Notes under the pieces: generated by a model
Told to the model about the DNA's origin: nothing
Seen by the model: the letters and a program-made list of their open reading frames with translations, nothing else
Database searches by the model: none
Translations under genes and position numbers: made by a program
In this document: piece after piece, positions 3,910 through 60,045 of the stretch
How positions within the stretch are numbered: position 1 is the first letter of the stretch
Layout of the letters: each line of letters begins with the position of its first letter
Assembly: GCA_002718395.1 (NCBI GenBank)
Contig: PBEG01000016.1
Coordinates: forward strand, 1,003-65,002
Length of the DNA: 64,000 bases
Reading direction: 5' to 3'
Source of the DNA: Chloroflexota bacterium
Lineage (GTDB): Bacteria; Chloroflexota; Dehalococcoidia; UBA2979

Positions 3910-5088
3910 TTAGCTTTCACCAAATAGATCCCTTGTGTAAATTTTCTCCGTAGTATCTGATAAATCTTCATGCATTCTGTTTGCCAAGATCAAAGATGAA
4001 GAATCTTTGAATTTCTCCAAGTTCGTAAATACTTCAGAACCATAGAATTGACTTTGAGTAATAAGTGGCTCATAAACAATCACTCTGACTCCTTTAGCTT
4101 TTATTCTCTTCATAATACCCTGAACTGAGGATGATCTTATATTATCTGATCCTTCCTTCATTATTAATCTGTATATACCAACACAATCAGGATTCTTCTT
4201 CATGATATCATCAGCAATATAATCTTTTCGTGAAACATTGGCATCAACTATCGCCCCAATTATATTCTGTGGAACTGAATTATAATTTGCTAACAGTTGC
4301 TTTGTGTCTTTTGGGAGACAATAACCTCCATATCCAAAGGAGGGATTATTATAACCCCGTCCTATTCTTGGATCTGAGCAAACAGCGGATATTATCTTTT
4401 CGGTATCCAATCCTAGGTTGAGAGCGTATGAGTCTAGCTCATTGAAATATGCTACCCTTAGTGCAAGATATGAATTTGAAAATAATTTCACAGATTCTGC
4501 TTCCTCAGGAGCAAGAAAAAAGCAAATTGGATCATTAAGCGCAATCTCCTCAAAAAGCTCACTAATTCTTTTTGCCAGATTAGAATTATCGCCAATAACA
4601 ATCCTAGATGGGTTGAGGTTGTCCTCTATGGCATGCCCCTCCCTCAAGAATTCAGGTGAGAATATTATCTGAATTTCTGGAAATTTACTTCTTATTTTAG
4701 ATATAAAGCCAACAGGTATTGTCGACTTAATCAGTATAGGTATTTTTGGATCATTGATTCTTATTTGATCAATTGTATCTTCTAGTATTGATGTATCAAA
4801 ATAGTTACCTTTCGGATCATAATTAGTAGGCAAAGCAAGAATATATAAATCTGTTTTTCCAAAAGTAGGCTCCAAATTTGGATAAGCTATTAATCTAGAT
4901 TTGTTAGATTCCAGAAACTCTTTAATCAGGGGATCATTAATTGGAGAGTTTGATGAATTAATCAGTCTTACTTTCTCTTCATCGATATCAATAATGCTAA
5001 CATTGTAATTTTGGCTCAATAAAACTGCTATTGAGTTACCAACATATCCAGCGCCAATTACTGAAATATTAGAAAAATTTTTCATCAA
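3910..5088 (-). CDS. ugd: UDP-glucose/GDP-mannose dehydrogenase family protein, probably UDP-glucose 6-dehydrogenase
   Basis: N-terminal Rossmann GAGYVG and catalytic-Cys motif GYGGYCLPKD. Size 392 aa. Adjacent to a UDP-GlcA epimerase-like gene. Confidence 0.75.
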   Translation of the reverse strand: MMKNFSNISVIGAGYVGNSIAVLLSQNYNVSIIDIDEEKVRLINSSNSPINDPLIKEFLESNKSRLIAYPNLEPTFGKTDLYILALPTNYDPKGNYFDTSILEDTIDQIRINDPKIPILIKSTIPVGFISKIRSKFPEIQIIFSPEFLREGHAIEDNLNPSRIVIGDNSNLAKRISELFEEIALNDPICFFLAPEEAESVKLFSNSYLALRVAYFNELDSYALNLGLDTEKIISAVCSDPRIGRGYNNPSFGYGGYCLPKDTKQLLANYNSVPQNIIGAIVDANVSRKDYIADDIMKKNPDCVGIYRLIMKEGSDNIRSSSVQGIMKRIKAKGVRVIVYEPLITQSQFYGSEVFTNLEKFKDSSSLILANRMHEDLSDTTEKIYTRDLFGES

Positions 5089-5133
5089 TCACACTCCTCA
5101 TTTTTTCCCATAACAAGCTGTAGATTAGAAAAT

Positions 5134-6144
5134 TTATATAGAGTAATAATCTCTATACCAATTTACAAAATTCTTCACTCCTTCCTCAATCGTTATTTTA
5201 GGTCTATATTTTGTTACCTCAAAAAGTCTTTCTGTATCAGCATGAGTAGTTAAAACATCGCCTGGCTGCATGGGTTGAAACTCTTTTTTTGCCTTGATAG
5301 ATAAATGTCTTTCCAATGTTGAGATAAAATCTAATAAACTAACTGGTCTACCATTTCCAATATTATATATAGAATATGGTGCAATTTTACTGCATGAAGG
5401 ATCTAGTTCATTATCCGAGCTAACGCTGCTTTTTTTGGGAAGTATTTCTTGTATTCTTACAATCCCCTCTACAATATCATCAATGTAGGTAAAGTCTCTC
5501 AACATATCACCATTGTTATTGATCTTTATTGGATCCCCATTGATTATAGATCGTGTAAATTTAAATAATGCCATATCTGGCCTACCCCATGGCCCATAAA
5601 CTGTGAAAAATCTTAAGCCAGTACATGGAATATTATAGAGATGTGAATATGCGTGTGACATCAACTCATTAGATTTCTTAGTCGCAGCATAGAGAGATAC
5701 AGGATGATCTGTGGAACTTGATTCAGATAGAACTTCATAGTCCTGAAATCCGTAAATGGAGCTTGATGAGGCATACACTAAATGATCAACATCAATAGAT
5801 CGACAAGCCTCCAGGACAGATAAATGACCAACCAAATTAGATTGTCCATAAATATAAGGATGATCGATTGAATATCTCACTCCAGGCTGAGCAGCAAGAT
5901 GAATCACACGATCAATTGCGCCCTCTTTCATTATTTGTGTAAGTTTATCAGTATCAATGATATCCATTAATTTAAATTGATAATTTCTATAATTCTCTAA
6001 AATGGAAAGTCTGTCTTTTTTTAACTTAACACTGTAATAATCACTGAGGTTGTCAATTCCAATTACGTCATACCCTAGCTCACATAATCTCATTGCAGTA
6101 TGAAAACCAATAAATCCTGCAGAACCTGTTAAGAGAAATTTCAT
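5134..6144 (-). CDS. NAD-dependent epimerase, probable UDP-glucuronate 4-epimerase
   Basis: Extended SDR (TGSAGFIGFH, YAATKKSNE YxxxK). Typical pairing with ugd in polysaccharide loci. Confidence 0.65.
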   Translation of the reverse strand: MKFLLTGSAGFIGFHTAMRLCELGYDVIGIDNLSDYYSVKLKKDRLSILENYRNYQFKLMDIIDTDKLTQIMKEGAIDRVIHLAAQPGVRYSIDHPYIYGQSNLVGHLSVLEACRSIDVDHLVYASSSSIYGFQDYEVLSESSSTDHPVSLYAATKKSNELMSHAYSHLYNIPCTGLRFFTVYGPWGRPDMALFKFTRSIINGDPIKINNNGDMLRDFTYIDDIVEGIVRIQEILPKKSSVSSDNELDPSCSKIAPYSIYNIGNGRPVSLLDFISTLERHLSIKAKKEFQPMQPGDVLTTHADTERLFEVTKYRPKITIEEGVKNFVNWYRDYYSI

Positions 6145-6171
6145 AAGAACTAGATTACCAGATAATAATCC

Positions 6172-8148
6172 TTAAATTTTCTCTGCTACAGAAACTCTAA
6201 AACGAAAAGATGGAATAGATCCATCTGGCTTCAATGTGTCATCTATCTCTTGCAGTGAAAATACCAACCGATTTAGGTAGCCATTCTTGTCTTGTTTATT
6301 GATTAACATTGGTAGTGCTGCACATTGATGAGGCTCCCAATTAACAGATATTGAGGAATCCTTGTTTGAAATTAATATTTCACCTCCAGTTACAGGAATT
6401 GCAGTCGTGCTTGAAACAAGGCTAGAAATTGGCTTTGTATGATCAAAATCACCATTAATTCTCAAAACCTCTCTTTGTCTACCTCCGCTTAGATATGAAA
6501 TCTCAATTTCATTTCCCCAGAAATCTGGTAAAAGAGTTAAGTAACCGACTCTCAGAAAATACTTGCCTCTCTTCCAATTTGGGAATTCATAATTGAGAGT
6601 AATCATTGGCTTTTGTCTTGAAATTGACAATCTTTTTTCAATATCTCCTAGAGCTGTATTGTGACTAGTTATTAATGTTATTGAAGATTTATCACTAATT
6701 ATCTCTGGCTCAACAACTTGTAGGTCAGATATTTTCTGGCCCTCAAAAAATCCCTGAGATTGAACGCCTCCAGTATAGAAATCTGCACCCAACAATATTG
6801 AATCGAAATAACCATGTGGCAATGTTCCAAATGCAGGATTATCAAATTTTGAAAACTGTAATTTATTAATAGTTAGGCCTTTTCTTAGGTTAAGGGATGC
6901 AATAACGTCCTTTGTGGATAATTTAAGTATTGTGTTCTCCTCATCAGTCGAATATTCAAAATTACTGTCATGATTTTCACAAGAATCATCGATTTCAGTT
7001 TTCGTATCAGTAGTTTTATCCCTAATTTTTATATTTGAATCAATGTGTTCATTGATCTGATGAATTTGTCCTACCGCTTTGTCCCATCTGTTTTTAGTTA
7101 TATGAGTTCTTAAATCACTCGACCATAAATCACATAGCCGTCTCTTTAAATCTTTGGATGCTCTGAGCTCAGAATCATCCATCATTTTATTAAATATCTG
7201 GTAACACATTGTATTAATCCATACATCATTCCGCCCTGATAGCGCCCAACGTGTAATATTGTATTTGGGCTGTTTCTTTACAGGAGCAGGATTTGCTGAG
7301 CTTACCAATATTCGAGCCTTTGTGTCTTGAGATGCAATATCAGGCATTATCTCTGAAGGAGTTGACCAAGTAATATCTCTATTTTTTGTCAAGTAAATCA
7401 TCAATTCTTTGATCCTATTCCATTCACCATGTGGGTGAATTGTTGACTCTGTATTGAATCGTCCAGGTCTATAATCAAAACATTCAGCATCATTTGTATA
7501 GAAAGGGACAATACCCATTTGAGAAGACTTATATTTATCAAAAAAATCAAGGTAGCTTTCAAAATTAATATCACCATGAGCAAATTGCTGGAGTTTTTGA
7601 AAAATAAATGAATTAGACCATAGAACAGGCATCTCATAGTTTGAAGGACTGAGAGCTTTGTTAGGCATCAGGCCATCCCACTCTTGATCATATTTAAAGG
7701 AAAGCTTTATGTTGCTCTCATCCATGATGAAGGAATCATATCCAACCTCATAAATTACATCTATGATACTACTAGAAAAGGCCATTTCATTGATAAGAGC
7801 AGTTTTAGGTCTTACATTCAGATAACGTTCATAAATTTCTAGACCTAAAAGATGATTCCAGTGATTGACCTCATAAGGAGTTAGAGGTGCGATCATTTGC
7901 ACGTAACCACTTCCAATCAGTTCCACTTTATCTTCATCAATTAATGATGAAAGCTTCTTGATCCAATTGTCATCAATCAAATTTATTCTCTCGAGCGTTT
8001 TTCCACTTGCTTCTATTGAAATCTTTATCCTATCTTCTTCACATAAGTCTAGAAGTGGCCAATAACATTTTTCTATAATAGATTCATGCTCATCTTCCTC
8101 TATTGATGAAAAAGAGAGATTCAAATGAAATGTGGTATACAATCTCAT
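6172..8148 (-). CDS. glycoside hydrolase family 57-like / carbohydrate-deacetylase-fold protein, function unknown (start probably at Met18 at 8148, coupled to the upstream stop)
   Basis: N-terminal TTFHLNLSFSS..EDE and later acidic motifs (ALINEMAF, YTNDAECFDYRPG) resemble the GH57 conserved regions. C-terminal half is beta-rich. Assignment by eye only. Confidence 0.35.
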   Translation of the reverse strand: MRLYTTFHLNLSFSSIEEDEHESIIEKCYWPLLDLCEEDRIKISIEASGKTLERINLIDDNWIKKLSSLIDEDKVELIGSGYVQMIAPLTPYEVNHWNHLLGLEIYERYLNVRPKTALINEMAFSSSIIDVIYEVGYDSFIMDESNIKLSFKYDQEWDGLMPNKALSPSNYEMPVLWSNSFIFQKLQQFAHGDINFESYLDFFDKYKSSQMGIVPFYTNDAECFDYRPGRFNTESTIHPHGEWNRIKELMIYLTKNRDITWSTPSEIMPDIASQDTKARILVSSANPAPVKKQPKYNITRWALSGRNDVWINTMCYQIFNKMMDDSELRASKDLKRRLCDLWSSDLRTHITKNRWDKAVGQIHQINEHIDSNIKIRDKTTDTKTEIDDSCENHDSNFEYSTDEENTILKLSTKDVIASLNLRKGLTINKLQFSKFDNPAFGTLPHGYFDSILLGADFYTGGVQSQGFFEGQKISDLQVVEPEIISDKSSITLITSHNTALGDIEKRLSISRQKPMITLNYEFPNWKRGKYFLRVGYLTLLPDFWGNEIEISYLSGGRQREVLRINGDFDHTKPISSLVSSTTAIPVTGGEILISNKDSSISVNWEPHQCAALPMLINKQDKNGYLNRLVFSLQEIDDTLKPDGSIPSFRFRVSVAEKI

Positions 8149-8149
8149 T

Positions 8150-9091
8150 TTAATTAAGTAAAGTCTTCCAAGAGCTACCCCAATGCTGATCAGAATCAAT
8201 TTCGCTCTCTAGAATCAAATCCAATGACTCAATAGCTCTAAATAAATTGTTTCTATTGATAAATTTGTAATTTCTGAGACTTATCCAGTTGTCAGGATTC
8301 CTTGTGGCTTTCAAAAGCCATTTAAAATCAGACTCATCATCGTCATAATTGAAAGCCAAAATTACTTTTTTGCCATAATATTCTGCCTCTTGCAGAATAG
8401 TCCCAAATGAGGTGATGATTATAGACGCATTGGCAATTTCAGTTTGCATATCTTCTGAATTAAAAACAAAATCAATTTCAGGGTATTTACTCAATAAATA
8501 ATCTTTTTTGTGCTTATAACCTGGCCCAATAATAATTTTCAATCTATTCATATAGTTTGAGTCATACAACAAATTAAGAACAATACTCGAAATATCGTTT
8601 GGGTCACTACCTCCAAAGGTCAGAAGAATCTTATCGTTAAGCTCTTTTTTGTATAGCTTTGGCTCTTTCAGAACTGAATAATGTTTCCCCCATAAGATTG
8701 AATTTTCTGAAATATAACTTTTCTTTATCTTATCTTTATTAATAAAGAAGGATGGAACTATAACTTCTCCAGAATGAATAGCCCACCTGTCAACCCTATC
8801 AATTATTATGGTATTTTCTTTATTTTTAAAAAAACCATCAATCATATCCATGCAATCGTATTTAGAGTCTACAAAAGCGTAACTGAAATTAAAATCATTA
8901 TGAGTTTGTTGCTTTATTATTTTAAATTTTCTCTTCTTAAGAAATTGACTCTCTATATCGTTTGTGGCCAAAAATATGGATTTATTTTTGAGTCCCATAA
9001 TCTCTATAATGTTAGTGAGTCTATACAAATGACCAAATCCTATTTCAACTCCGCCAGACGCGAAACATAGAATTTTCTCACTATGACTCAC
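8150..9091 (-). CDS. pseG: UDP-2,4-diacetamido-2,4,6-trideoxy-beta-L-altropyranose hydrolase-like (PseG family GT-B)
   Basis: N-terminal GGVEIGFGHLYRL (the GxGHxxR signature of PseG), ~310 aa. Adjacent to a NeuB-family gene. Confidence 0.6.
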   Translation of the reverse strand: MSHSEKILCFASGGVEIGFGHLYRLTNIIEIMGLKNKSIFLATNDIESQFLKKRKFKIIKQQTHNDFNFSYAFVDSKYDCMDMIDGFFKNKENTIIIDRVDRWAIHSGEVIVPSFFINKDKIKKSYISENSILWGKHYSVLKEPKLYKKELNDKILLTFGGSDPNDISSIVLNLLYDSNYMNRLKIIIGPGYKHKKDYLLSKYPEIDFVFNSEDMQTEIANASIIITSFGTILQEAEYYGKKVILAFNYDDDESDFKWLLKATRNPDNWISLRNYKFINRNNLFRAIESLDLILESEIDSDQHWGSSWKTLLN

Positions 9092-9097
9092 TTGAAC

Positions 9098-9946
9098 TTA
9101 GAAACTACTTCTTATTTTCTTCATAGGGCGAAGTCCATCAGTTGGGTCAGCCCTCCAATCTCGGTCAGCTATTTCTGAGTCTGATGGCTCCTTATTACCA
9201 TGACCATCAGCATCTATACCTTCACGGACTTCCTTAATGACAACCTCAATCTCCTTTGGCAACCAACAATGTCCCGATGAGAACTCTTCGCCTTTCTTAT
9301 CTAGATCGAGATGAAACTCTATTATGCTCGCATTCCATTTATGGATTGCTCTGTGAATCACACTAGGGCTGACTGTATGATCAGACCACCCAACATTACA
9401 TCCTGTTTTATCTCTTATCGTTTGTATTGCAGATAAATTGGCGTCTCTCAGCGGTGTCGGATATGAGGAATTGCAATGTAGAAATGTCAAGTCAGTACAA
9501 TTATTCTTATGTGCAATTTCTTTGGCATGTAATATTTCAGGAATTGTTGCCATACCTGTAGAAAGTATTAGGGGTTTCGAAGTATTTGAGCATTTCTCAA
9601 TTAATGAATCCCATAGTAATTCATAAGAAGCGATCTTAAGGAAATCTACATAGTCATCAAGAAGATCGACGGCGCTAAGGTAAAAAGGTGTGCAAGAAAA
9701 CTTTATACCTCTAGACTTAGAATGCTCATAAAGCAATGGGATATATTCCTCTGGTAACTCCCATGACTTTCTATCTCTATGATTTTTAGACTTTTCTAGA
9801 ATCTCACTTGAAAATAGTTGCTCTATTCTAAATAACTGAAATTTTACAGCATCACAGCCAATATCAGATGCACAATCAATAAATTCTTTGCATCTTTCCA
9901 GGTCATTACCATGATTACTTGATACCTCTGCAATGAAATATGTCAT
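9098..9946 (-). CDS. NeuB/PseI-family nonulosonic acid synthase lacking the C-terminal SAF domain
   Basis: FIAEVSSNHGNDLERCKEFI...AVKFQLF TIM-barrel signature of N-acylneuraminate/pseudaminate synthases. Ends after the linker (GHGNKEPSDSE) at 282 aa versus ~340 aa for PseI. Confidence 0.65.
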   Translation of the reverse strand: MTYFIAEVSSNHGNDLERCKEFIDCASDIGCDAVKFQLFRIEQLFSSEILEKSKNHRDRKSWELPEEYIPLLYEHSKSRGIKFSCTPFYLSAVDLLDDYVDFLKIASYELLWDSLIEKCSNTSKPLILSTGMATIPEILHAKEIAHKNNCTDLTFLHCNSSYPTPLRDANLSAIQTIRDKTGCNVGWSDHTVSPSVIHRAIHKWNASIIEFHLDLDKKGEEFSSGHCWLPKEIEVVIKEVREGIDADGHGNKEPSDSEIADRDWRADPTDGLRPMKKIRSSF

Positions 9947-9947
9947 A

Positions 9948-11111
9948 TTATTCCACTTCTATAGTAATAGTATTTAGAGCTAGTTGACAACGATGCTCGG
10001 CCTCACTTCGATCTTTTCCTGAAACTATAACATAACCGAATCTATCTGGATGCATCCTGATAGATGGTTGAATCTCACCTTTATCTCTAAAAAAACCAAA
10101 CTTCACAAAGCCAGGAACATTTTCTAATTCTTCTATTCCATGAATATCCTTGATGACACCTTCTTTTGGAAACCAATATCTTATTGAAGTAGCATTTCTT
10201 TTCTTAGGCTTAAGGTCTATCTCATCAATAGGAATAGAAAGTGAATGATGCATAACAATCTCTACTAAATTCACTCCCGTTGCTATTGGAACTTGATGAG
10301 TAGCAAACCAACCTCCAGATAGTCTTGCAGCAATTTCTATTACTTTTATATTTCCATTGTTATCAATAACAATGTCCCCTTTAATGATGCCCTCACTGAT
10401 ACCAATAGCCAAAGCACTATTCAGAATTATATGATCAATTTCTTCAAGTTCAGATTTACTGAGTTCTGGAGGAATATCACCACCGTCTTCGATAATATAT
10501 GGTTTGAATTGTGTCAATCTAGAATAGTTTCTTTCTGCAATTGCAGGGGTAAAACATCTTCCATCTAAAATAAAGCTCTCGGTGGAATATTGCTTACCCT
10601 CAATATATTCTTCCAAAATCAGTTTTCCTGAATCTCCCCATCTTATAGATTCTTCGAAAGCCCAATATAAATCTATATCCTGATCCAGGATTAAAACCCC
10701 TCTCGCGCCTCTTCCATCGTTTGGCTTTAAAACGAATCTTTCGTTATCACTATCCTCAATTATTCGTTTTAAATCCTGAAATGATGACAATTCATAATGG
10801 GCCGGACAGGGAATCTGATTTGCGGTGAAAGACTTTTTCATTAGTAGTTTATCTGATGCTATTTTCGCTGATTCAATCGATATTGATGGCAAACCAAGCT
10901 CAGTGGCTGTAAGTGCAACAGTGTATGGCACATCATTTGCAATTGTCATAACTCCGTCAATTGGGATTTTCTTAGAAAAGTTTTTTGACATTCTTGCTGT
11001 TTTCTCGGCATCTCTAGTAGATACTTTTATGAAATAGTCAGATAAATTAACAGAAGGAGCATTTGGATCTAAATCTGTAGCAATTGTTCTGATACCTTTT
11101 TGTTTTGCCAA
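9948..11111 (-). CDS. ATP-grasp domain ligase (carboxylate-amine ligase family)
   Basis: Pre-ATP-grasp plus ATP-grasp motifs (RFVLKPNDGRGARGVLIL, LILEEYIEGKQYSTESF, IEIAARLSGG). Confidence 0.65.
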   Translation of the reverse strand: MAKQKGIRTIATDLDPNAPSVNLSDYFIKVSTRDAEKTARMSKNFSKKIPIDGVMTIANDVPYTVALTATELGLPSISIESAKIASDKLLMKKSFTANQIPCPAHYELSSFQDLKRIIEDSDNERFVLKPNDGRGARGVLILDQDIDLYWAFEESIRWGDSGKLILEEYIEGKQYSTESFILDGRCFTPAIAERNYSRLTQFKPYIIEDGGDIPPELSKSELEEIDHIILNSALAIGISEGIIKGDIVIDNNGNIKVIEIAARLSGGWFATHQVPIATGVNLVEIVMHHSLSIPIDEIDLKPKKRNATSIRYWFPKEGVIKDIHGIEELENVPGFVKFGFFRDKGEIQPSIRMHPDRFGYVIVSGKDRSEAEHRCQLALNTITIEVE

Positions 11112-11163
11112 TTTATAGGCAGGGGCTTGTTCAGCTCCTGCGCCAACTATTAATAAATGCTTT

Positions 11164-11892
11164 TCAGGAGAAATAAATGCCTCCGTTTATATTAAGGGTT
11201 TGCCCTGTAATATAATTTCCATCTTCAGCTAGAAAGAATGCAAGTGAAGCAACATCAGAAGGGTCGCCCAATCTTCCAAGAGGAATCTGACTTTCTAACT
11301 CTTCCAGATTAATCGACGATAGTTCATCTTTCGTCATATCGGTTTCGATTAATCCTGGCGCTATTGCATTTGTACAAATTCCTTCATTTGAGAATTTTTT
11401 AGCCATAGATTTTGTTAGATTAATTAGAGCTGCCTTGGATGCTGCATAATGTACCTGATGAATCCCGCCCCATTGGCCACCCAATGATGAAATATTAATG
11501 ATTTTTCCAAATTTATTTTCTCTCATCTTGATAACAGCTCTCTGTGAACAACGGAAAGCACCAATAAGATTTACCGATAGCATGTTAAACCAATCGTCAT
11601 CCTCTAACTCTTCAAATAATTTGACTTGAGAAATCCCAGCATTATTTATAAGAATATCAATAGAACCATGGCTAGATTCAATTTCATCAAATGCGGCATT
11701 TACTGAAAGCGTAGAGCTAACATCAATATTAATTGCATATGCATTACCTGTGGATGCTAATTCTTCTGCTTCAATTTTTTTATCCTTGAAACCTATGAAG
11801 ACTTCGAAGTCTGATTGGATAAATTTTTCAGCAATTGATTTACCGATTCCTCTGCTAGCACCCGTAATAAAAACTCTCTTTTTTCTATTCAT
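11164..11892 (-). CDS. short-chain dehydrogenase/reductase (FabG-like 3-oxoacyl reductase family)
   Basis: TGASRGIGKSIA cofactor motif, NNAG, YAASKAAL catalytic YxxxK. 242 aa. Confidence 0.8.
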   Translation of the reverse strand: MNRKKRVFITGASRGIGKSIAEKFIQSDFEVFIGFKDKKIEAEELASTGNAYAINIDVSSTLSVNAAFDEIESSHGSIDILINNAGISQVKLFEELEDDDWFNMLSVNLIGAFRCSQRAVIKMRENKFGKIINISSLGGQWGGIHQVHYAASKAALINLTKSMAKKFSNEGICTNAIAPGLIETDMTKDELSSINLEELESQIPLGRLGDPSDVASLAFFLAEDGNYITGQTLNINGGIYFS

Positions 11893-11898
11893 TCAAAC

Positions 11899-16549: not shown

Positions 16550-16565
16550 AATGAAATTCTATTTA

Positions 16566-18652: not shown

Positions 18653-18676
18653 TCAAAAAAATTTGTGTAATGATTA

Positions 18677-19918: not shown

Positions 19919-19968
19919 ATTAATACTCGTTTAATCTAATAAAATTCATTTGGCCTTGACTAAAATGA

Positions 19969-21909: not shown

Positions 21910-21945
21910 GAAAGCATTTAGAAGAAAATGATTTTTCTATTATTG

Positions 21946-42369: not shown

Positions 42370-42385
42370 TTATGGCTCTCTTCCT

Positions 42386-44238: not shown

Positions 44239-44283
44239 AAAATGATTGGCTATCTAACCAGTCTTTACTCTTATATGGAAATA

Positions 44284-47661: not shown

Positions 47662-47671
47662 AATTATGATA

Positions 47672-51809: not shown

Positions 51810-51822
51810 AATTGAAACAATA

Positions 51823-51830
51823 GCTACCGC
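51823..51830 (-). promoter_or_regulatory. ops-like element GCGGTAGC (core of the RfaH recruitment site GGCGGTAGnnTG) in the operon leader, 13 nt upstream of the marR-like start
   Basis: Minus-strand (non-template) reading ctaGCGGTAGCtattg. Lies between the rfaH ortholog and the first gene of the ~48 kb operon. An 8-mer may also occur by chance (~2 expected in the window). Confidence 0.4.
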
Positions 51831-51949
51831 TAGATTTTAGTAGCTAAAACCTTATTATAGTTTAAAATTTTTCTATCTCTGTTCATTTGATGAACAGCTA
51901 CATTATAATAAGATTATTTGTTCATGCAATGAACATAAGTTCAATTAGA

Positions 51950-52553: not shown

Positions 52554-55415
52554 TTAAAAACTATTTACTGCTGCTGCTGCAAGTGCCATTTGATATATTA
52601 TTTGTGTGACTTCTGTAGTAGCTTGAATACTTGAGAACGGTTGTACCTGTAATGGTATAACAATTGTATCTCCAGGAGCTAGCTGTGACCCCCGTCCTCT
52701 AAAAAACCCTGATGACAACTGTGATGGTGAAACTACACTTCCGTCTGATTTAATCAGATAGAGATTGGCTTCATCAGCAAATGATGTTAATCCTCCACTC
52801 AAGCTAATATAGTCATTAATTCCTAGATCTTTTTTGTATAAGTGTGAATTTGACACAAAAACTTCACCGATGACTGAAATACTTTGAATCTTTTTAGGGA
52901 TATGTAGCTTATCTCCATCTTCAAGAATTATATCATCTATACCTCCTGATAATATTCCATCAAGATCAATAACTAGTCGGCCAAGAACTTCGGTATCATT
53001 GGTGTCTGATGATATTAGAGATGTAAGTTGACTTATAGAATTACTATCAAGAGAGTCTTTGCCTAGACCGCCAGCCTGACTCGATAGCAGTATTTTTCTT
53101 TTCAACTCATCTTGAGCACTTTTTAATCTGTCTTTTTCTGCTTCTTGAATAGCCTCTCTTTGATAGTAAGCTGCATCGATTGATCCAAATTCAGTTACTC
53201 CTCCTGCTCTTCTTATGAGCTCGCCCAATGTTTGATTCTCTGTTATTGGATAAGTACCTGGAAAGAAGACCTCTCCGCTAATTTCAACTGACTGAAAATC
53301 TGTGGCCAACTGTTTTAGTATTACAGTATCCATCTCATTTAACTTAATCTCACTTGCCTCTTTTATAGAAGCAAAGTTATTTTTACTGATAAATTTCTTA
53401 TCTTGTTGATTTATAGTATTAAGCTCAATTTCAGCCTGATAAGTTCCATTCTTGGGTCCTCCAGCCGCTTTGATAGCATCTGACAAGATCATTTGGTTTG
53501 TGAGTGGATATTGACCAGGGAAATGGACATTTCCATAAACTGAAACGAGACTGAGTTTTTCTTTAGTATCATTCCTCTCTATCAAATCTATAATTGGATC
53601 AAGTAACTCTTGCCTACATAAAGATGTAATTGTTTTTGATAACGCCTCGCTTTGATAGTTCTCATTCTGAAGCTCTATCCTTTCTCTCTCCAAAGTTTGC
53701 TGAAGAATTAAGAAATCTTCTGGCGTTGAAAGTTTTTCTAGATCTTCTATAGGAATTGATTTCTTTGGTCTGAATCCAGATTCTTCAATTATCTTAATAG
53801 CCAAATCTTCTGGTAAAGTGCAGTAATCATAAACACTATACTCATAGTATCTCATAATGTCTGATTCTGACATTTCCAAATCTGGTTGGGTTTGTATTTC
53901 ACCAATGCTCATTGTATTTTTCTTATCAAGAGCTAGCTTTTCCTCCATAAGTGATTTTCTAAGATAGGTCAAAGATGTCCATTCGTCCTCAAGAACCATC
54001 ATATTGGAATCCTTATCAAGAACATATCGATCTCGTATCAGCCTAGTTGTGATTTGATCAGGAGTAATAATGGAAGGAAATAGGATAATTTCATCATGAT
54101 CCTTTAGAGTCAAATTTTTACTAGATTCAGGATTGCTAAATAGATCCTCTAAATCTATTTGATGAAACTCAAATAGTTGTGATTTTTTATTTTTTCTTTT
54201 TACTAGGACATAATTCAAATCTGTCATCTCCAGTAAGTCATCTGAATCATTAAAGAGATCCAATAATTTCATTCCACTTTGCCAAGGATAGAATCCAGGT
54301 TCTTGAGCATGTCCAGAAATTAGGACGGCATTTTTAAGATTATTGGGAACAGAAAATACTGAAACAACATCGCCATTCATCATCTCAAAATTTTGACTAT
54401 CTTTTTTATTCATATCGATTGAAAGAAGGTCAAATGAATTATTGATAGTATTTATCCTAGTAATATTTGTTGAAGAGAGGTTTGCTTTTGGTTTTAGATT
54501 TCCAGAATATTTTAGAAGGTGCTCTAAGTTCTCATCATTTTTGAGTTCATATATTCCAGGCTTATTTACCTCTCCTCTTATCGCAACTGTTTTTCCAATT
54601 GGCTCGATGAAAACTACATCGCCTTGCATTAATCTAGAATCATTACTAGTATCTCCATTTAGTAGAAGGTCGTAAAAATCAAATGTTGTAACGACATTAC
54701 CGTTTCTTTTAAGCTTGATATTTCTTAGCGAACCTGCCTTGCCTATACCCCCGCTCTTCATTATTGCATTTGTAAGTGAAGATAAAGCACTTATGCTGAA
54801 CATGCCTGGATTACTGGCTGATCCCAAAACAAAAATATCAATTGCTCTCAGAGTACCCATTGTAACGCTTACTTGTGCACCGATTAGTTGATTAGAAATT
54901 ATATTCTTCAGTAGCTCTTTCAAATCTCCAAAAGTAATGCCAGCAACAAACACTGGTCCAATTTCTGGAAGAAAGATATCACCATCTCTAGTGACTTTAA
55001 GTTCATACTTACTGTTCTTGCTCCCAAAAAGAATTATCTTAATTGTGTCATTTGGTCCAATCATATAATCGGGTGGAACAGGAACATCCTTTAAAGGAGC
55101 AAATGTAGACAGATTGTTTTGAAAGTAACTATATCCGAAATAATCTAGAGGCTCATTTGGTAATCTTACATTAGGGGGGTTAACAAAATTCTTGCCTCCA
55201 GTATATCCATAATCACTATCTGAAAAGTCAATTGTCTCTTGCCTTTTTTCATCGATTTCATCCTCATCATCTGACTCAAAATCGGAAACTTGATCAGCGT
55301 CACTGTTACCTAATCCGCTAGCTAGGTTAGTTAGTATTGATGCCTCCATTTGAGCATAAGAATTCTGTCCTATAATCAAAACTAATAGCAAAATAATTTT
55401 GTAGTTAAGTTTCAT
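52554..55415 (-). CDS. wza: outer-membrane polysaccharide export protein (Wza/OPX family, giant multi-SLBB form, 953 aa)
   Basis: Signal peptide. Poly_export-like region (PPDYMIGPNDTIKIILFG) followed by several soluble-ligand-binding beta-grasp-like repeats. Comparable in size to Vibrio WbfF/OtnA. Confidence 0.75.
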   Translation of the reverse strand: MKLNYKIILLLVLIIGQNSYAQMEASILTNLASGLGNSDADQVSDFESDDEDEIDEKRQETIDFSDSDYGYTGGKNFVNPPNVRLPNEPLDYFGYSYFQNNLSTFAPLKDVPVPPDYMIGPNDTIKIILFGSKNSKYELKVTRDGDIFLPEIGPVFVAGITFGDLKELLKNIISNQLIGAQVSVTMGTLRAIDIFVLGSASNPGMFSISALSSLTNAIMKSGGIGKAGSLRNIKLKRNGNVVTTFDFYDLLLNGDTSNDSRLMQGDVVFIEPIGKTVAIRGEVNKPGIYELKNDENLEHLLKYSGNLKPKANLSSTNITRINTINNSFDLLSIDMNKKDSQNFEMMNGDVVSVFSVPNNLKNAVLISGHAQEPGFYPWQSGMKLLDLFNDSDDLLEMTDLNYVLVKRKNKKSQLFEFHQIDLEDLFSNPESSKNLTLKDHDEIILFPSIITPDQITTRLIRDRYVLDKDSNMMVLEDEWTSLTYLRKSLMEEKLALDKKNTMSIGEIQTQPDLEMSESDIMRYYEYSVYDYCTLPEDLAIKIIEESGFRPKKSIPIEDLEKLSTPEDFLILQQTLERERIELQNENYQSEALSKTITSLCRQELLDPIIDLIERNDTKEKLSLVSVYGNVHFPGQYPLTNQMILSDAIKAAGGPKNGTYQAEIELNTINQQDKKFISKNNFASIKEASEIKLNEMDTVILKQLATDFQSVEISGEVFFPGTYPITENQTLGELIRRAGGVTEFGSIDAAYYQREAIQEAEKDRLKSAQDELKRKILLSSQAGGLGKDSLDSNSISQLTSLISSDTNDTEVLGRLVIDLDGILSGGIDDIILEDGDKLHIPKKIQSISVIGEVFVSNSHLYKKDLGINDYISLSGGLTSFADEANLYLIKSDGSVVSPSQLSSGFFRGRGSQLAPGDTIVIPLQVQPFSSIQATTEVTQIIYQMALAAAAVNSF

Positions 55416-55553: not shown

Positions 55554-57077
55554 TCAAGAGAAGTATTTATTTTTATATTCTTTAAACGTAATTATATCTT
55601 TTTCGAGCATGCATTGTTTCTTTATTGAGCTTTCTGTTTCAATATTTAGTTTTTTCCAATTGGAATTATTCTTTGAATTTAACTCAAGAAATTTTAGTTT
55701 ATTCTTATGAGAAATAGACTCTCCAAGACGAATAAATGATCTTTTTTCTATGAGTGATTCTAAGATCATAGCTGAGGGAGTTAAAGAAGGGTCATTGATT
55801 CTTGCTCTCATAAGCTCAATATTTTCAGAGTGTCCAATTTCTTTGTGGTTATCCAAAAAATTAGCTATTGGAAGCATTTCATCAAGAATTTCATTTGCCC
55901 AATCTGTTAAAGAAATATTCTTATCATTTCTTACTAATTTCAAATTTGGCTTCCTGCCCATCTTTGCAACTTTGATATCATTTTTAAATATCTGTTTTTC
56001 TTCTATTTTATTGATGGGATCACTTTCCTTTACGAACGCATAGAGCATGAAGATCTCTAGAAAAATTATAGTCTCTTCACTAATCCCAATTGGAGAATAT
56101 GGATCCAGATCCAGTGACCTTAATTCAATGAAATCAACACCGCCATTCAATAACTTCTTTGCAAAACGAACATCTGATTTATCTATACTCTTAGCTCTAG
56201 CAGCGGCATAGTACTCATCTTCTATTTGTAATTGGTTAGCATTAATTTGAGAGAGCGTATCCCCTGTTTCATCAAAAATCTTTGAAAATGAATCGCTTTT
56301 TTGATTAGTTGCTTTTAACAGATCAGTGGTATATGAATTCAATGAATTTGTTGAAATATTAATTTTCGCCCTCGATAAATTTTGATACCCATACTCACTC
56401 ATCCTGATTGAAGTTCCGTATGGGGAAAATAAAGTGTTTTTATCTAACTTGACAAAATCATCATTTAAACCTGATAAAAAATCTTTAGTTATTGAAGGAG
56501 AACAACCAAATAAATAGAGAATTAGCCAATTCATTCTTAGAACATTTCTAAGAATAGAGAAATAATTCTCAGATCTTAATTCAAGAGATTCTCTTTCATG
56601 ATTTTTAAATATAGAGCTTGTCCAAATTTTTCTTGGTAATGAATAATTAAAGTGGACACCGGAAATAGTTTGCATTAATCGGCCATATCTATGAGATAAA
56701 CCTTTTCGATACACATGCTTAAAGAGTCCTTTGCTTGAAGTTCCAAATTTTGCAATAGGTATGCCGCCCTTACCTATATAAAATGGCATACTAAAAGGCC
56801 AGAGCATTTCGTCATCAACACTAGAGTAAAAAAAATGATGAATATCTAAAAGAAAATTAAGTGCTTTTCTTTTGTCAGAAAAAGGTGGTGTAATGAATTC
56901 TAGTTGAGCCTCAGAGAAATCAGTTGTTATATAACTATTACATAATGAGGAGCCTAATGATTTTGGATGGGGTTCTTGTGAAATCTTTGAATTCAAATAT
57001 CTTAAGCTTTCTTTTTCAATTCCTACTTCTGAGCACTTTATATATGGCTCTATCTCAGATAATAGTTCCTGTTTCAT
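55554..57077 (-). CDS. gshA: glutamate--cysteine ligase (E. coli type)
   Basis: LGSSLCNSYITTDFSEAQLEFITP, YGRLMQTISGVHFNYSLP, VDFIELRSLDLDPYSPIGI colinear with E. coli GshA. 507 aa. Confidence 0.9.
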   Translation of the reverse strand: MKQELLSEIEPYIKCSEVGIEKESLRYLNSKISQEPHPKSLGSSLCNSYITTDFSEAQLEFITPPFSDKRKALNFLLDIHHFFYSSVDDEMLWPFSMPFYIGKGGIPIAKFGTSSKGLFKHVYRKGLSHRYGRLMQTISGVHFNYSLPRKIWTSSIFKNHERESLELRSENYFSILRNVLRMNWLILYLFGCSPSITKDFLSGLNDDFVKLDKNTLFSPYGTSIRMSEYGYQNLSRAKINISTNSLNSYTTDLLKATNQKSDSFSKIFDETGDTLSQINANQLQIEDEYYAAARAKSIDKSDVRFAKKLLNGGVDFIELRSLDLDPYSPIGISEETIIFLEIFMLYAFVKESDPINKIEEKQIFKNDIKVAKMGRKPNLKLVRNDKNISLTDWANEILDEMLPIANFLDNHKEIGHSENIELMRARINDPSLTPSAMILESLIEKRSFIRLGESISHKNKLKFLELNSKNNSNWKKLNIETESSIKKQCMLEKDIITFKEYKNKYFS

Positions 57078-57113: not shown

Positions 57114-59309
57114 TTAAATACTCTCTCTTGGTGATGTACTAAATCCATTGAAAATCTTTTTGATGGACCATGATTTTTGGCTAATAATATCTAATTCATC
57201 TGAAGCATCGGTTACTAGGTTATATAAGCCTCCCCCTGACTCAACTTTTGTGCCAGCATCTTTTGTGAGAGGGCTCCAAGAATATCCTGTTTTTTGTCTA
57301 GTAGAAGAACTTATAAAAAATAAGTCCATTGGCATCTCAAAATAGATCCATTTATTAAAACTACCTTCTCCGACACACTGAGAATCACAATCAGTTAATG
57401 CTACTATTGCTCCAACCCTTGCGCCTGTATCAAATCTTCTGGATATATCTATATGTGCGCCAACATCTTTACCTAGAAATTTACCCATACTTATTTTTAG
57501 GCGTGTATCGTAAAAAGGAATGTCACGGTAATAAGACAGAAATCCCGTTACAGTCTCATAATCCTGAAAACCAAACCTCTGATCAAAGTCTCTTTGCTTT
57601 ACCCAGAAAGCCTCTAAACCTAATGCCCATCTTCTATTATCTGGTAAATATAAAACCTCTCCTCCATATCCTCCATACATCCATTCGAGATAACCAGCAG
57701 AGAGCTTAGCTTTTATGTTTGTGCTTAATCCAAATACATAATCAATAGCCATTCTTCTTAATCCTGACTCACCCTCAGTTAAATATAATCTTCTGTTTTG
57801 CCTGACATGATAAAGCTCTCCATCCGGAACATGATATGTATAGTCTCTATAGTTATTTGCGATATCAATTCCAATATCAGTCGTAAATGTCAATCCTTTC
57901 TTAATTGCATATTCAGTGTGAATTAGGGCCTCAAGCTGCCAGAAGTAAAACTTTTCTTGGTGTTGAAGTGTACCTAGAGCATGAGGCTTTATTTCCCAGG
58001 AAAAATTTGGGTATAAAAAATCATTTTTAATAACAGTTACGTCATTCTCGAGTGGTCTATAGATATCATAAGAAAACATTTCTTCTTCTAGAGGCTGATC
58101 TCTAACAATTCTTTTAATATCTCCTTTTCTTATGGTTGACCTTATTGTTTCAATACCCTGATCAATATTTATAATTGTTATATGTTCAATATTTTTTGGA
58201 GCATTACTTGCCAAAACTCTACTAGCCAAGTCAAGAGCTTGGGATGTCTTGCTGAATCTTCCCTGGCTTATCTCGGCTGCTAACTCATCCCCATTGAAAA
58301 AAATATTATGTGTTACAAAACCAACATTTGCCATCTCTCGAAATATCCTGTTAGTAAGAAATTTCTTCCAGTTATCATTTGTGGTGCTGTAGTTATCAAT
58401 ATTCGTATTTCTTAGTATTTCTGGCCCTAAAACTATGCTTGGGCGTCCTTTAAAATTAAGATTCGAATGTACAGATGCATTCAAGTAAATGGTGTTACCT
58501 CTAACATATCCTAGTGATAAATCTAATTTATCTCTATCACCTAGATTCATTCTGTAATTGAATGAATAATTAAATCTAGAGTCTAGTTGAAATTTATCCC
58601 CCGTTTCATCAAACCTTTTTTCAAGACCGATTATTCTTGAATAATTTGAAGAATCATATTCTAGCTTAAATGTGAAATTATCAATTGGGCTCAGATACTC
58701 TAAACCACCAAAAAATGCTGCGTCGCCTGAGAATAATCTGCCAAAGCTAACAAGACCGCCTAGAGTTCCTTTCTCGCCGCCTCTAATTTTTTTTGATTCA
58801 ATGAAATGCCCCAAAGGATTATTGAATGTATTTTTACCTGCAAGTCTCCCCCAACCCAAACCAAAGCTCAAATCAAAATTATTGATTTTCTTAGACCCTA
58901 CGATATATTCGCTTGCATATGCTCCTGTACCACCAAAATCAGTTATCCCCATTGCTATCTGGGGGAAATTATCTCTTTCTTTAAGTAACAAAAAACGAAA
59001 ATCAATACCTTTATCTTTCCATGTTTGCTGACTACCTTTCATGTAAGGCCTAGAGGTACCCTCGGTATATTTGAGCGTTGCTTCCATCCAGGGGAATATC
59101 TGGACTGATGAGTAGAGACGGTTATAAACTTCTTCTGAAGAGATTCCAAAAACAAACTCTCCATCATCTAAGAATCTGGCTGAGGGAGTTTCAATTAAAC
59201 CTATGCCACCATATGTCGATTGGAAATAAGGTGAACTATAATCATCTGCATACACCGTAATTGAAACGATGCAGCTAAAAAATATTAATAATGAAATTTT
59301 CTTAAGCAT
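57114..59309 (-). CDS. YjbH/GfcD-family outer-membrane beta-barrel protein (exopolysaccharide/group-4-capsule assembly)
   Basis: Signal peptide. YGGIGLIETPSARF..YSSVQIFPWMEATLKYTE..GITDFGGTGAYASEYIVGSK..FDLSFGLGWGRL and C-terminal PMDLFF..SWSPLTKDAG align with E. coli YjbH. Confidence 0.8.
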   Translation of the reverse strand: MLKKISLLIFFSCIVSITVYADDYSSPYFQSTYGGIGLIETPSARFLDDGEFVFGISSEEVYNRLYSSVQIFPWMEATLKYTEGTSRPYMKGSQQTWKDKGIDFRFLLLKERDNFPQIAMGITDFGGTGAYASEYIVGSKKINNFDLSFGLGWGRLAGKNTFNNPLGHFIESKKIRGGEKGTLGGLVSFGRLFSGDAAFFGGLEYLSPIDNFTFKLEYDSSNYSRIIGLEKRFDETGDKFQLDSRFNYSFNYRMNLGDRDKLDLSLGYVRGNTIYLNASVHSNLNFKGRPSIVLGPEILRNTNIDNYSTTNDNWKKFLTNRIFREMANVGFVTHNIFFNGDELAAEISQGRFSKTSQALDLASRVLASNAPKNIEHITIINIDQGIETIRSTIRKGDIKRIVRDQPLEEEMFSYDIYRPLENDVTVIKNDFLYPNFSWEIKPHALGTLQHQEKFYFWQLEALIHTEYAIKKGLTFTTDIGIDIANNYRDYTYHVPDGELYHVRQNRRLYLTEGESGLRRMAIDYVFGLSTNIKAKLSAGYLEWMYGGYGGEVLYLPDNRRWALGLEAFWVKQRDFDQRFGFQDYETVTGFLSYYRDIPFYDTRLKISMGKFLGKDVGAHIDISRRFDTGARVGAIVALTDCDSQCVGEGSFNKWIYFEMPMDLFFISSSTRQKTGYSWSPLTKDAGTKVESGGGLYNLVTDASDELDIISQKSWSIKKIFNGFSTSPRESI

Positions 59310-59460
59310 ATCTAATTTTAGTCAACTATAAATAATCTCACACAGTCTATAAGTTATATTAACGTTTTTAGAAGTGTCTAGATGATATTTAGTAACTAAT
59401 ACTTACCCAAATGTCTCAACTAAGGAGAAATCTTGGGCAAGTACCTAAGTAAGATATTGT

Positions 59461-60045
59461 CTAGTTACTTGACGAAGTAGTTGTACTACTAGTTGTGGTA
59501 GTAGTCGTAGTTACACCCGTTGTTGTTGTTGCTGCTGCTGATGTAGTTGTAGTAACTGGATCAGTTGTAGTAGCTGTTGTAGTTGTTGTAACTGGATCAG
59601 TTGTAGTAGCTGTTGTACTACTAGTAGTTGTTGTAGTTGCTGGCGTCGGTGTCGGCGTCGGCGTCGGTGTAGGTGTCGGCGTCGGTGTAGGTGTAGGTGT
59701 AGGTGTCGGCGTCGGTGTAGGTGTAGGTGTAGGTGTAGGTGTTACAGGATCATTGCCAGATGGGGTAGTGTATTCCGAAGAACCGCCACTAAAAAGTCCT
59801 AAAATTGCTCCAGTAATCGCAACCCAGACTCCAGCTCCAGCCACACCAGCTGCACCAGCTGATGATGAGCCGCCAGCTGCTTCTGCTGCTTCTGCTGCTT
59901 CTGCTGCTTCTGCTGCTTCTGCATTAGGATCTTCAAATTCCCCAGCTCCTTCTTCACCCTCTGATGCAATAGACTTAAAGCTTGCGCCAGATAGGACAAG
60001 AGTTAACATTGAGAAGTATGTACCGAGTTTTTTCAATAATTTCAT
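59461..60045 (-). CDS. YjbE/GfcA-like secreted Thr/Pro/Ala-rich low-complexity protein
   Basis: Signal peptide, (AEA)n block, Gly/Ala hydrophobic segment, (TP)17 linker, poly-Thr tail. Immediately upstream of the yjbH-like gene, as gfcA/yjbE is in E. coli. Confidence 0.6.
   Translation of the reverse strand: MKLLKKLGTYFSMLTLVLSGASFKSIASEGEEGAGEFEDPNAEAAEAAEAAEAAEAAGGSSSAGAAGVAGAGVWVAITGAILGLFSGGSSEYTTPSGNDPVTPTPTPTPTPTPTPTPTPTPTPTPTPTPTPTPTPATTTTTSSTTATTTDPVTTTTTATTTDPVTTTTSAAATTTTGVTTTTTTTSSTTTSSSN
59552..59617. repeat. 36-bp direct duplication (gtaactggatcagttgtagtagctgttgta ...) encoding a repeated TATTTDPVTTTT unit
   Basis: Two near-identical copies at 59552..59581 and 59588..59617. Confidence 0.8.
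59642..59743. repeat. hexanucleotide tandem repeat (GGTGTC/GGCGTC/GGTGTA)x~17, encoding (Thr-Pro)n on the minus strand
   Basis: Directly visible: ggcgtcggtgtcggcgtcggcgtcggtgtaggtgtcggcgtcggtgtaggtgtaggtgtagg... Confidence 0.9.
59877..59923. repeat. 9-bp tandem repeat (GCTGCTTCT)x5 encoding (Ala-Glu-Ala)n on the minus strand
   Basis: gctgcttctgctgcttctgctgcttctgctgcttctgctgcttctgca. Confidence 0.9.

Follow-up and report, generated by a model that had tools for sequence, protein, structure and literature searches.

A probable replacement-type surface-polysaccharide island of about 50 genes beside cysQ in an uncultured marine bacterium

Phage receptors, and recognition by grazers or immune systems, are determined by surface-glycan islands, which also serve to mark strain diversity in marine populations. 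The closest described systems are the replacement flexible genomic islands ('glycotype' or O-chain clusters) of Alteromonas (PMC4898812, PMC3542563, PMC4033161), of SAR11, where they are known as HVR2/OBC (PMC2217521, PMC11898729), and of Salinibacter (PMC2800850). Here we describe a block of 52-57 kb, with about 50 co-oriented genes for the synthesis and export of a surface sugar polymer, on a 64,000-nucleotide stretch of metagenomic contig PBEG01000016.1 (positions 1,003 to 65,002; the window). Like glycotype islands, the block lies at a fixed site between conserved genes, consists of surface-glycan genes, occurs in differing versions in related genomes and has no mobility genes. Unlike them, it belongs to an uncultured, unplaced host whose contigs sit in metagenome-assembled genomes (MAGs) labelled Chloroflexi or Marinimicrobia, it is unusually large (51-52 genes) and pathway-rich, and its strain-level diversity is seen through one junction fragment. 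We consider it probable, at roughly 0.85, that this is a surface-polysaccharide island of the replacement type, for an O-antigen and/or an O-antigen capsule, at a fixed site by rho-trx-cysQ-ugd, exchanged by recombination and with modules swapped. Swappable surface-sugar islands are already well known, and this is an elaborate example rather than a new kind of system; its least ordinary features are the absence of a Wzx flippase and the presence of uncharacterised sugar-tailoring modules. The established picture is unchanged. The value of the locus is that it extends the record of such islands to an uncultured lineage without a close reference genome, and that it is well delimited for tests of glycan chemistry and of the flippase.

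The gene content also resembles the Wzx/Wzy-dependent O-antigen and group-4 capsule loci of Enterobacteria and Vibrio. Shared with these are a WecA-type initiator, Wzz, a Wzy-like protein, a Wza-family exporter, a YjbH/GfcD-family protein and a small Thr-rich protein, as well as rml, gmd/fcl, rfbF/G, ugd and pse genes and a long one-way operon that follows an ops-like element and an RfaH-like factor. The block differs from them in that no Wzx, Wzc/Etk kinase, Etp phosphatase or GfcB/GfcC was detected, gshA is embedded in it, the RfaH-like gene lies inside the locus, and neither the complete 12-nt ops of E. coli nor the JUMPstart model finds a match. Having the RfaH-like gene inside the locus is presumably closer to the situation of Bacteroides UpxY than to that of E. 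coli rfaH. In the Wzk/PglK route, a fused ATP-binding cassette (ABC) exporter flips the Helicobacter pylori O-antigen and the Campylobacter N-glycan (PMC2841628). The block resembles this route in that a WecA-type enzyme would begin on undecaprenyl phosphate, Wzx is missing from the locus, and the ABC half-transporter is fused and MsbA-like, with PglK as its best curated match. It is unlike it in that the H. pylori route works without Wzy or Wzz, whereas this locus has Wzz and a Wzy-like protein, together with an outer-membrane exporter.

The preliminary description, made from the letters of the sequence, had reported a run of about 50 tightly packed minus-strand genes with ATGA/GTGA coupling, and both the listing of open reading frames (ORFs) and the gap statistics agree. 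The minus strand of 3910-60857 carries 52 consecutive ORFs, 51 of them inside 3910-60045; the 52nd and last co-oriented one, g56 (60255..60857; 200 amino acids), is an ORF call only and has no Pfam, PHROG or PADLOC match. The median spacing between block ORFs is 17 nt, 45 of 51 gaps are shorter than 60 nt, and 16 junctions are at or below zero, with seven 4-nt ATGA/GTGA overlaps and two 1-nt overlaps. Since the widest gap in the block measures only 209 nt, there is no room for a hidden further gene. On the left lie purD, rho, a thioredoxin gene (trx) and cysQ (convergent with the block). The cysQ gene, for a 3'(2'),5'-bisphosphate nucleotidase (3081..3896, plus strand; Pfam Inositol_P), is the conserved left anchor and adjoins a glycan cluster in every relative examined. 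The right flank, on the plus strand, encodes a 115-amino-acid secreted protein, mdh and a FadE-type acyl-CoA dehydrogenase. The core flanks proposed earlier hold for cysQ, mdh and fadE; gshA, also placed there, turned out to lie inside the block. This housekeeping gene for glutamate-cysteine ligase (55554..57077; TIGR01434, 426 bits against a cut-off of 393) lies 36 nt beyond yjbH, with wza on its other side, and like every other block gene cited here it is on the minus strand. The last gene of the block is ugd, for UDP-glucose 6-dehydrogenase (3910..5088; TIGR03026, 309 bits against 190, at the subfamily level). Every junction in the window is covered by contigs at least 99.9% identical from about ten assemblies, some of which may re-assemble the same Tara Oceans runs, and the window contig is thus not an assembly artefact or chimera.

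Comparison with relatives carries the case for exchange. Distant relatives, represented by metagenome contigs with Rho 84-93% and CysQ 52-58% identical, keep purD-rho-trx-cysQ and then carry a convergent, unrelated glycan cluster. The genes at their cysQ site encode a cadherin-domain protein, DUF6044, an AT3-SGNH acyltransferase, a heparinase II/III-like protein and a UDP-GlcNAc 2-epimerase, or a PglF-like protein plus rml. No match between 100% and 58% identity came from scanning metagenomes with CysQ; two sister lineages, B and C (CysQ 69-70% identical), were found only by protein searches with the ABC exporter, Wzy and CysQ. In lineage C a 47,354-bp contig reaches from wza to cysQ, with about 45 kb between them versus 51.5 kb in the window, and in lineage B a 56,004-bp contig holds cysQ, the wzy-like gene and yjbH. 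The backbone g13-g44 is colinear in the window, B and C, with about 35 shared genes at 75-98% amino-acid identity (88-90% for g13), and in C colinearity extends through rml, wzz, the helix-turn-helix (HTH) gene, the RfaH-like gene and wza. Both sister lineages have a YjbH about 90.5% identical to that of the window, and for YjbH and Wza together the figure is about 88-90%; unlike its neighbour YjbH, GshA has no cluster mate at 90% identity or above. Two modules are swapped. Window genes g06-g12 correspond in B and C to Inositol_P, mannitol dehydrogenase, ATP-grasp, a 321-amino-acid protein and NeuB, and the CDP-sugar module is kept in B (84-95% identity) and replaced in C.

Synonymous divergence (dS; Nei-Gojobori) separates the island from its frame. 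Against the sister lineages, the five flank genes purD, rho, trx, cysQ and ugd have dS values of 0.93-1.97, whereas the island backbone genes have 0.25-0.8, and g38-g45 (the Pse block, the ABC exporter and rmlC) are 93-98% identical to lineage C with dS of 0.05-0.22. Because island dS lies well below flank dS, the island and sub-blocks of it appear to have moved between the lineages after their divergence; a glycan island of about 50 kb would thus have passed, whole and in parts, between lineages with saturated flanking genes. Alteromonas 'glycotype' islands show the same behaviour (PMC4898812); the contrast is about 95% versus 81% in the Alteromonas case, and island dS of 0.05-0.8 versus flank dS of 0.9-2.0 here. 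The ugd gene (71% amino-acid identity to the sister lineages, dS 1.2-1.35, like cysQ) behaves like part of the conserved frame, apparently evolving as the core flank does. Taken together, these comparisons support a mosaic island with swappable modules that has moved between lineages and whose site is occupied variably in the wider clade. The expectation of a variable locus among related genomes is partly borne out, by the unrelated genes at the cysQ site of distant relatives and by the two swapped modules, and is countered by the roughly 35 colinear genes in two sisters.

A separate observation concerns lineage B contig L202. In its first 1371 nt (1-1371), rmlC is missing upstream of the ABC-exporter gene and two small ORFs stand in its place, of which one is a piece of a C-methyltransferase C-terminal domain; the ABC gene itself is truncated at its 5' end. 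This looks like a further rearrangement scar.

Evidence at the strain level comes from contig L023 (k119_1645053, sample ERZ27286485). With one mismatch it agrees with the window over 3.85 kb, from 1645 to about 5493, and then, over its positions 3860-4120 (window ~5494-5750, inside g06), falls abruptly to about 67% identity. The 54-kb island contig of the same sample stops at about 5470, and other assemblies break at 5097, at 5584/5585 and at 55560-55589. The L023 junction likely marks recombination with a different version of the island, carried by a co-occurring strain; it may instead be an assembly chimera. Breaks and junction together bear the signature of an assembly-graph branch between strains with a common flank and a different island, as read from 255 nt. 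At least two assemblies have contig ends at 55560-55589, which would place a recombination boundary at the gshA 3' end. The breaks of at least six assemblies at about 59.70 kb were considered as an island border and rejected, being caused by TP/Thr tandem repeats in g55. The length of these repeats differs between samples (+9 nt at 59843, -30 nt at 59666-59695), while the surrounding 17 kb has just 2-3 single-nucleotide polymorphisms.

Composition does not mark the island. The GC content is 33.8% in the island versus 35.9% in the flanks, and GC at third codon positions (GC3) is equal at about 0.26, so the compositional deviation that the preliminary description had proposed as a check was rejected as an island marker; the flanks, at 8.5 kb, are too short for tetranucleotide distance to be informative. 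Neither tRNA genes nor att-like direct or inverted repeats were found in the window, and no transposase or integrase Pfam families in the block. The unannotated proteins have no PADLOC defence match, and PHROG returned only g50, weakly (E 1.4e-4). The lack of a transposase or integrase remarked on earlier was thereby confirmed by the Pfam, PHROG and PADLOC searches, and a mobile-element origin was rejected for want of tRNA genes, att-like repeats, transposase, integrase and notable PHROG or PADLOC matches. The same absences fit exchange by homologous recombination in conserved genes, which would be the simplest reading.

The gene families agree with the earlier assignment of the block to surface-glycan biosynthesis and export of the O-antigen or capsule type. 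Pathways were called with curated NCBIfam/TIGRFAM cut-offs (bits found against cut-off) and with Pfam. All five nucleotide carriers named before (dTDP, GDP, CDP, UDP and CMP) are represented by enzymes that reach their cut-offs, namely RmlB/D/A/C, Gmd, RfbF, RfbG, PseB, PseC, PseF and Ugd. Judged by family membership, the routes to dTDP-L-rhamnose, GDP-L-fucose, a CDP-6-deoxyhexose and a CMP-pseudaminic-acid-type nonulosonate are complete or nearly so, and a UDP-glucose 6-dehydrogenase is encoded as well. The rhamnose genes rmlC, rmlA, rmlD and rmlB (47104..50507) all exceed TIGRFAM equivalog cut-offs (RmlA TIGR01207, 450 against 361; RmlB TIGR01181, 479 against 365; RmlC TIGR01221, 257 against 156; RmlD TIGR01214, 290 against 224). 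The fucose genes lie within 28913..38606, where Pfam and NCBIfam place g28 (GT2), g29, g30 (S-adenosylmethionine-dependent methyltransferase), g31 (fcl), g32 (gmd), g33 (GT4), g34 (a short-chain dehydrogenase/reductase, SDR), g35, g36 (WbbJ-like hexapeptide O-acetyltransferase) and g37 (450 amino acids). Gmd scores 543 bits against 415 (TIGR01472), and Fcl, full length, 442 bits, just under the cut-off of 500 (NF047922); no manB or manC is present in the locus. The g37 protein has a weak match to TIGR04396, a surface carbohydrate biosynthesis protein, and nothing from a PDB sequence search.

The CDP-sugar module (14808..21066; NCBIfam, Pfam) consists of g14 (rfbF), g15 (GT2), g16 (SDR reductase), g17 and g18, two tandem C-methyltransferases of the Pfam Methyltransf_13/14 type, and g19 (rfbG). 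The glucose-1-phosphate cytidylyltransferase RfbF scores 456 against 300 (TIGR02623) and the CDP-glucose 4,6-dehydratase RfbG 439 against 278 (TIGR02622). No RfbH/E1-E3 genes occur in the locus, so the CDP route would not be a 3,6-dideoxyhexose route. Within 21106..27718 follow g20 (GT2) and a heptose module, with a GmhA-like protein (g21), an HddA-like GHMP kinase (g22), a nucleotidyltransferase-HAD phosphatase fusion (g23) and three SDR epimerase/dehydratase/reductases (g24-g26). The best NCBIfam matches of this module are GmhA, HddA, GmhB and Man1P-GTase, all under their equivalog cut-offs; the GmhA, HddA, GmhB and HddC activities are all represented by g21, g22 and the g23 fusion, each with a sub-cut-off score. 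These sub-threshold matches point to a nucleoside-diphosphate-heptose route with GDP as its putative carrier. For GDP, the gmd/fucose part of the preliminary description therefore stands, and its heptose pathway and GDP carrier go back to sub-threshold matches.

The pseudaminic-acid module (38719..45285) comprises g38 (NHL beta-propeller), g39 (ATP-grasp-like), g40 (ATP-grasp), g41 (pseF), g42 (pseC) and g43 (pseB). It is like the known CMP-pseudaminic acid pathway in that PseB, PseC and PseF exceed equivalog cut-offs (529 against 408, 516 against 424 and 294 against 206) and that PseG-like (g08; 61 bits, under 154) and PseI/NeuB-like (g09; 177 bits, under 340) genes are present. It is unlike it in that no PseH-type GNAT was found among the locus proteins, where ATP-grasp ligases are present instead, that the NeuB-like protein is without the C-terminal SAF domain, and that the genes are split between the island ends, at 42-45 kb and 8-10 kb. 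The second of these positions is the lineage-specific 3' module of seven genes, g06-g12 (5134..13617; Pfam, NCBIfam). It contains a NAD-epimerase, which sub-threshold matches make a putative UDP-glucuronic acid 4-epimerase (g06), a 675-amino-acid protein with a GH57-like N-terminal domain (g07; 6172-8199), the PseG-like g08, the 282-amino-acid NeuB/PseI-like g09 (9098-9946), an ATP-grasp ligase (g10), a FabG-like SDR (g11) and an acetolactate-synthase-like thiamine pyrophosphate (TPP) enzyme (g12). Both g07 and g09 are absent from lineages B and C, whose own NeuB has 293 amino acids and is 50% identical to g09. The GH57-like family is unusual in a glycan biosynthesis locus, and a PDB sequence search with g07 gave just one marginal match, to a GH57 glucanotransferase.

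Pfam adds up the further tailoring enzymes to six SDR epimerase/reductases and three ATP-grasp proteins. The three ATP-grasp ligases and the NHL propeller, together with the TPP enzyme, SDR and GH57-like protein confined to the window lineage, suggest a non-standard N-acylated nonulosonate. A YerE-like role of the TPP enzyme in the CDP-sugar branch was considered less likely, as in lineage B the CDP module is present although the TPP and SDR genes are not; these two genes co-vary with the NeuB module and not with the CDP module.

For polymer assembly, the preliminary description had named Wzz, a Wza-type exporter and a WecA-type initiator, all of which Pfam recovers. The initiator g13 (13652..14755; Pfam Glycos_transf_4, about ten transmembrane (TM) helices) is a WecA/WbpL-type polyprenyl-phosphate N-acetylhexosamine-1-phosphate transferase, with WecA TIGR02380 as its best NCBIfam match (204 bits, under the exception-level cut-off of 326). 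Pfam recognises four glycosyltransferases (three GT2, one GT4) besides this initiator, short of the six or more counted before; g08, g29, g35 and g37 are candidates for further ones. The chain-length protein Wzz (g49, within 50566..51809; Pfam Wzz) is of the PCP-1 type with two TM helices. For export there are a 953-amino-acid outer-membrane polysaccharide export (OPX) protein of the Wza family (g52, 52554..55415; Pfam Poly_export and SLBB, NCBIfam export families) and a YjbH/GfcD-family outer-membrane protein, an exopolysaccharide export accessory (g54, 57114..59309; Pfam PF06082). Pfam families for GfcB/YjbF, GfcC/YjbG, the Etk (Wzc) kinase and the Etp phosphatase are absent among the 52 ORFs. 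Beyond yjbH, g55 (59461..60045) encodes a secreted or anchored low-complexity protein with a signal peptide, (EAA)n, a Gly/Ala segment, about 16 TP repeats and a Thr-rich tail. In composition alone it is Thr-rich like GfcA/YjbE, and we take it to fit equally the Thr-rich GfcA/YjbE-type partner of YjbH/GfcD. Its repeats also create a spurious 190-amino-acid antisense ORF (59495-60067).

The Wzy assignment made before holds as a Wzy-like protein below threshold: g27 (27663..28895; about 11 TM helices) has the WaaL/Wzy_C fold and scores 25.4 bits against a Wzy_C cut-off of 31.7. At about 410 amino acids it has no PglL-specific domain that could be found. Its family counts 24 homologues at E<=1e-5 among 5.8 billion proteins, several from Tara Oceans marine data. 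An AlphaFold (AF2) model from the 24-member family (mean confidence score, pLDDT, 79.6) has WaaL 7tpg as its sole significant PDB fold match (TM-score 0.52), and with WaaL as the only match the fold search could not tell Wzy from WaaL. The WaaL/Wzy_C fold is also that of PglL enzymes, and characterised WaaL and PglL enzymes need a conserved histidine. The g27 family alignment contains no invariant histidine, which, going by WaaL, favours a Wzy-type polymerase over a ligase.

A hydropathy census of the block recovered only four membrane proteins, g13 (about 10 TM helices), g27 (about 11), g44 (6) and g49 (2). Wzx, a MOP-family protein of about 12 TM helices, is found neither among the locus proteins nor in the sister-lineage islands, and the locus is a natural case of a Wzy/Wzz system without Wzx. 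The only flippase candidate encoded in it is g44 (45296..47107; Pfam ABC_membrane and ABC_tran), a PglK/MsbA/HepA-like fused ABC exporter with six TM helices and an ATPase domain. Its fold and topology fit a type-IV ABC exporter, and homologues about 50% identical occur in many Gammaproteobacteria. Unlike PglK proper, it falls outside the curated PglK equivalog, with 318 bits against a cut-off of 1000 (NF050066) and about equal scores for MsbA (316) and HepA (306), all sub-cut-off; flipping by g44 is predicted.

The leader of the operon suggests a possible form of elongation control. The RfaH named before corresponds to an RfaH-like NusG paralogue, g51 (51950..52498; Pfam NusG), whose RfaH score stays below the cut-off (TIGR01955, 117.6 bits under 144.5; NF006534, 97 under 124), with 62 bits for NusG and 64 for UpxY. 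Between g51 and g50 lies a 140-bp leader and promoter region (51810..51949). The first operon gene, g50 (within 50566..51809), encodes a 104-amino-acid winged-helix protein (HTH_24/MarR-like; HTH_24, 45 bits) and is translationally coupled to wzz (g49) by an ATGA overlap. An ops-like core, GCGGTAGC, stands on the coding strand at 51823-51830, 14 nt upstream of the g50 start, and is the single exact match to the 8-nt ops core in 64 kb; 8 of 100 shuffled windows hold at least one such match. Set against E. coli ops, GGCGGTAGnnTG, the site differs at positions 1 and 10-12. Two perfect 17-bp palindromes, TGTTCAT-N3-ATGAACA (51880-51896 and 51919-51935), lie 39 bp apart around a TATAAT-like box, upstream of the ops-like site, and are possibly operators for the g50 winged-helix protein. 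The ops-like core and both palindromes are kept in lineage C. Rfam found no family at gathering score in the window and nothing relevant at E<=10 in 51400-52100, JUMPstart included. Gaps from 51.8 down to 3.9 kb are 112 nt at most. The arrangement makes RfaH/ops control of the locus a well-placed inference.

These features can be joined into a model. The WecA-type enzyme g13 would start a repeat unit on undecaprenyl phosphate, which the four recognisable glycosyltransferases, and probably some unannotated proteins too, would extend and which methyl-, acetyl- and ATP-grasp acyl-transferases would decorate. The unit may then be flipped over the inner membrane by the PglK/MsbA-like g44 or by a Wzx encoded elsewhere, polymerised by the Wzy-like g27 under Wzz control and exported via the 953-amino-acid Wza-type channel with YjbH. 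Transcription of the 48-kb operon would start in the 140-bp leader after the RfaH-like gene, where the ops-like GCGGTAGC could allow the locus-encoded RfaH paralogue to keep RNA polymerase elongating. In evolution, homologous recombination in conserved flanking or internal genes would pass the island between related lineages, and module swaps would diversify it. A bolder version, which we hold only tentatively and would sooner doubt than accept, is that in all three lineages a PglK/Wzk-type exporter flips the unit and the Wzy-like protein, Wzz and giant Wza-YjbH follow, a hybrid route that would be new so far, while lineage-specific modules may make chemically undescribed sugars. The modules meant are the set of TPP enzyme, SDR, ATP-grasp, SAF-less NeuB and GH57-like protein, and the twin C-methyltransferases on the CDP-sugar.

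Several points weigh against a replacement-type polysaccharide island. All 11-12 contigs with identical CysQ or Rho carry this island, and strain-level replacement comes down to a single 255-nt contig tail plus coincident contig breaks; of the earlier description as strain-specific and hypervariable, one g06 allele switch (L023) speaks in favour, and the same island in every other identical-Rho/CysQ contig against. Flank dS comes from only five genes and is near saturation, and the GC and GC3 of the island are not deviant. The WecA, RfaH, PseG, PseI, GmhA, HddA, Fcl and Wzy_C assignments fall under curated cut-offs, the locus has no Wzx and the Rfam JUMPstart model is unmatched. The genes may serve either a lipopolysaccharide (LPS) O-chain or a capsule, and either one polymer or several. 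Some of these points would equally suit a vertically inherited, essentially fixed LPS or capsule locus of the clade, as would the same gene order at 99.9% identity or more in about ten assemblies, the lack of any alternative island behind an identical Rho or CysQ, the roughly 35 colinear genes common to two sister lineages, the native-like GC3 and the missing mobility genes. We regard such a fixed locus as improbable: island dS is 2- to 30-fold under flank dS, two modules have been replaced between sister lineages, relatives have unrelated genes at the cysQ site, and a divergent g06 allele begins abruptly behind an identical flank.

Within an exchanged island, the block might also hold two or more adjacent glycan systems rather than one highly decorated repeat unit, for example a Pse polymer or glycoconjugate made via the ABC exporter and a Wzy-dependent fucose/heptose/CDP-sugar O-unit, the two sharing Wzz, Wza and YjbH. 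Seven potential donor sugars set against four recognisable glycosyltransferases would fit this, as would the pse pathway split between 42-45 kb and 8-10 kb, the separate recombination histories (g38-g45 dS 0.05-0.22 versus 0.4-0.8 for the rest) and the coexistence of an ABC exporter and a Wzy-like protein. We treat it as a serious possibility that is nevertheless the less likely arrangement, since there is just one initiating transferase, one Wzz and one OPX protein, since the gap-poor stretch from 51.8 to 3.9 kb with its single ops-like site suggests one operon, and since the ABC exporter is PglK/MsbA-like, whereas classical ABC-dependent polysaccharide pathways use exporters of the Wzm/Wzt or KpsMT type. 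Very unlikely, in our estimate, is that part of the locus serves general O-linked protein glycosylation, with g27 as a PglL-type oligosaccharyltransferase, a PglK-like flippase and g55 as substrate. That g27 matches the WaaL/Wzy_C fold alone, that the best match of g44 is PglK and that g55 is an exported low-complexity Ala/Pro/Thr-rich protein beside the locus all lend it something; Wzz, the Wza-type exporter and YjbH are nevertheless polysaccharide-specific, g27 lacks both the invariant histidine in its family and a PglL-specific domain in its roughly 410 residues, and g55 would presumably fit a GfcA/YjbE-type partner just as well.

The host itself is best approached through Rho (1195-2577). 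Its best genome matches in a scan of GTDB genomes are Gammaproteobacteria at 72-78%, among the matches listed, of which the closest (78%) is the single-cell genome AG-447-N20, with no island at that site. The protein has a basic N-terminal extension of about 42 amino acids that is unmatched in the 80 best genome matches, all of which align from residue ~43. In GenBank the window proteins (MBI51959-MBI52011) belong to a 65,355-bp contig in a MAG labelled 'Chloroflexi bacterium', a sister-lineage Rho 96% identical to that of the window sits in a MAG labelled 'Candidatus Marinimicrobia bacterium', and another, 95% identical, is labelled 'Gammaproteobacteria bacterium'. The Rho matches and the RfaH, GshA and Wza/YjbH families agree with a proteobacterial host, and the phylum labels therefore probably reflect errors in binning. 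The host would be an uncultured marine proteobacterium, probably a gammaproteobacterium, and the findings serve as a warning that the window contig and the sister contig are probably mis-binned in public MAGs.

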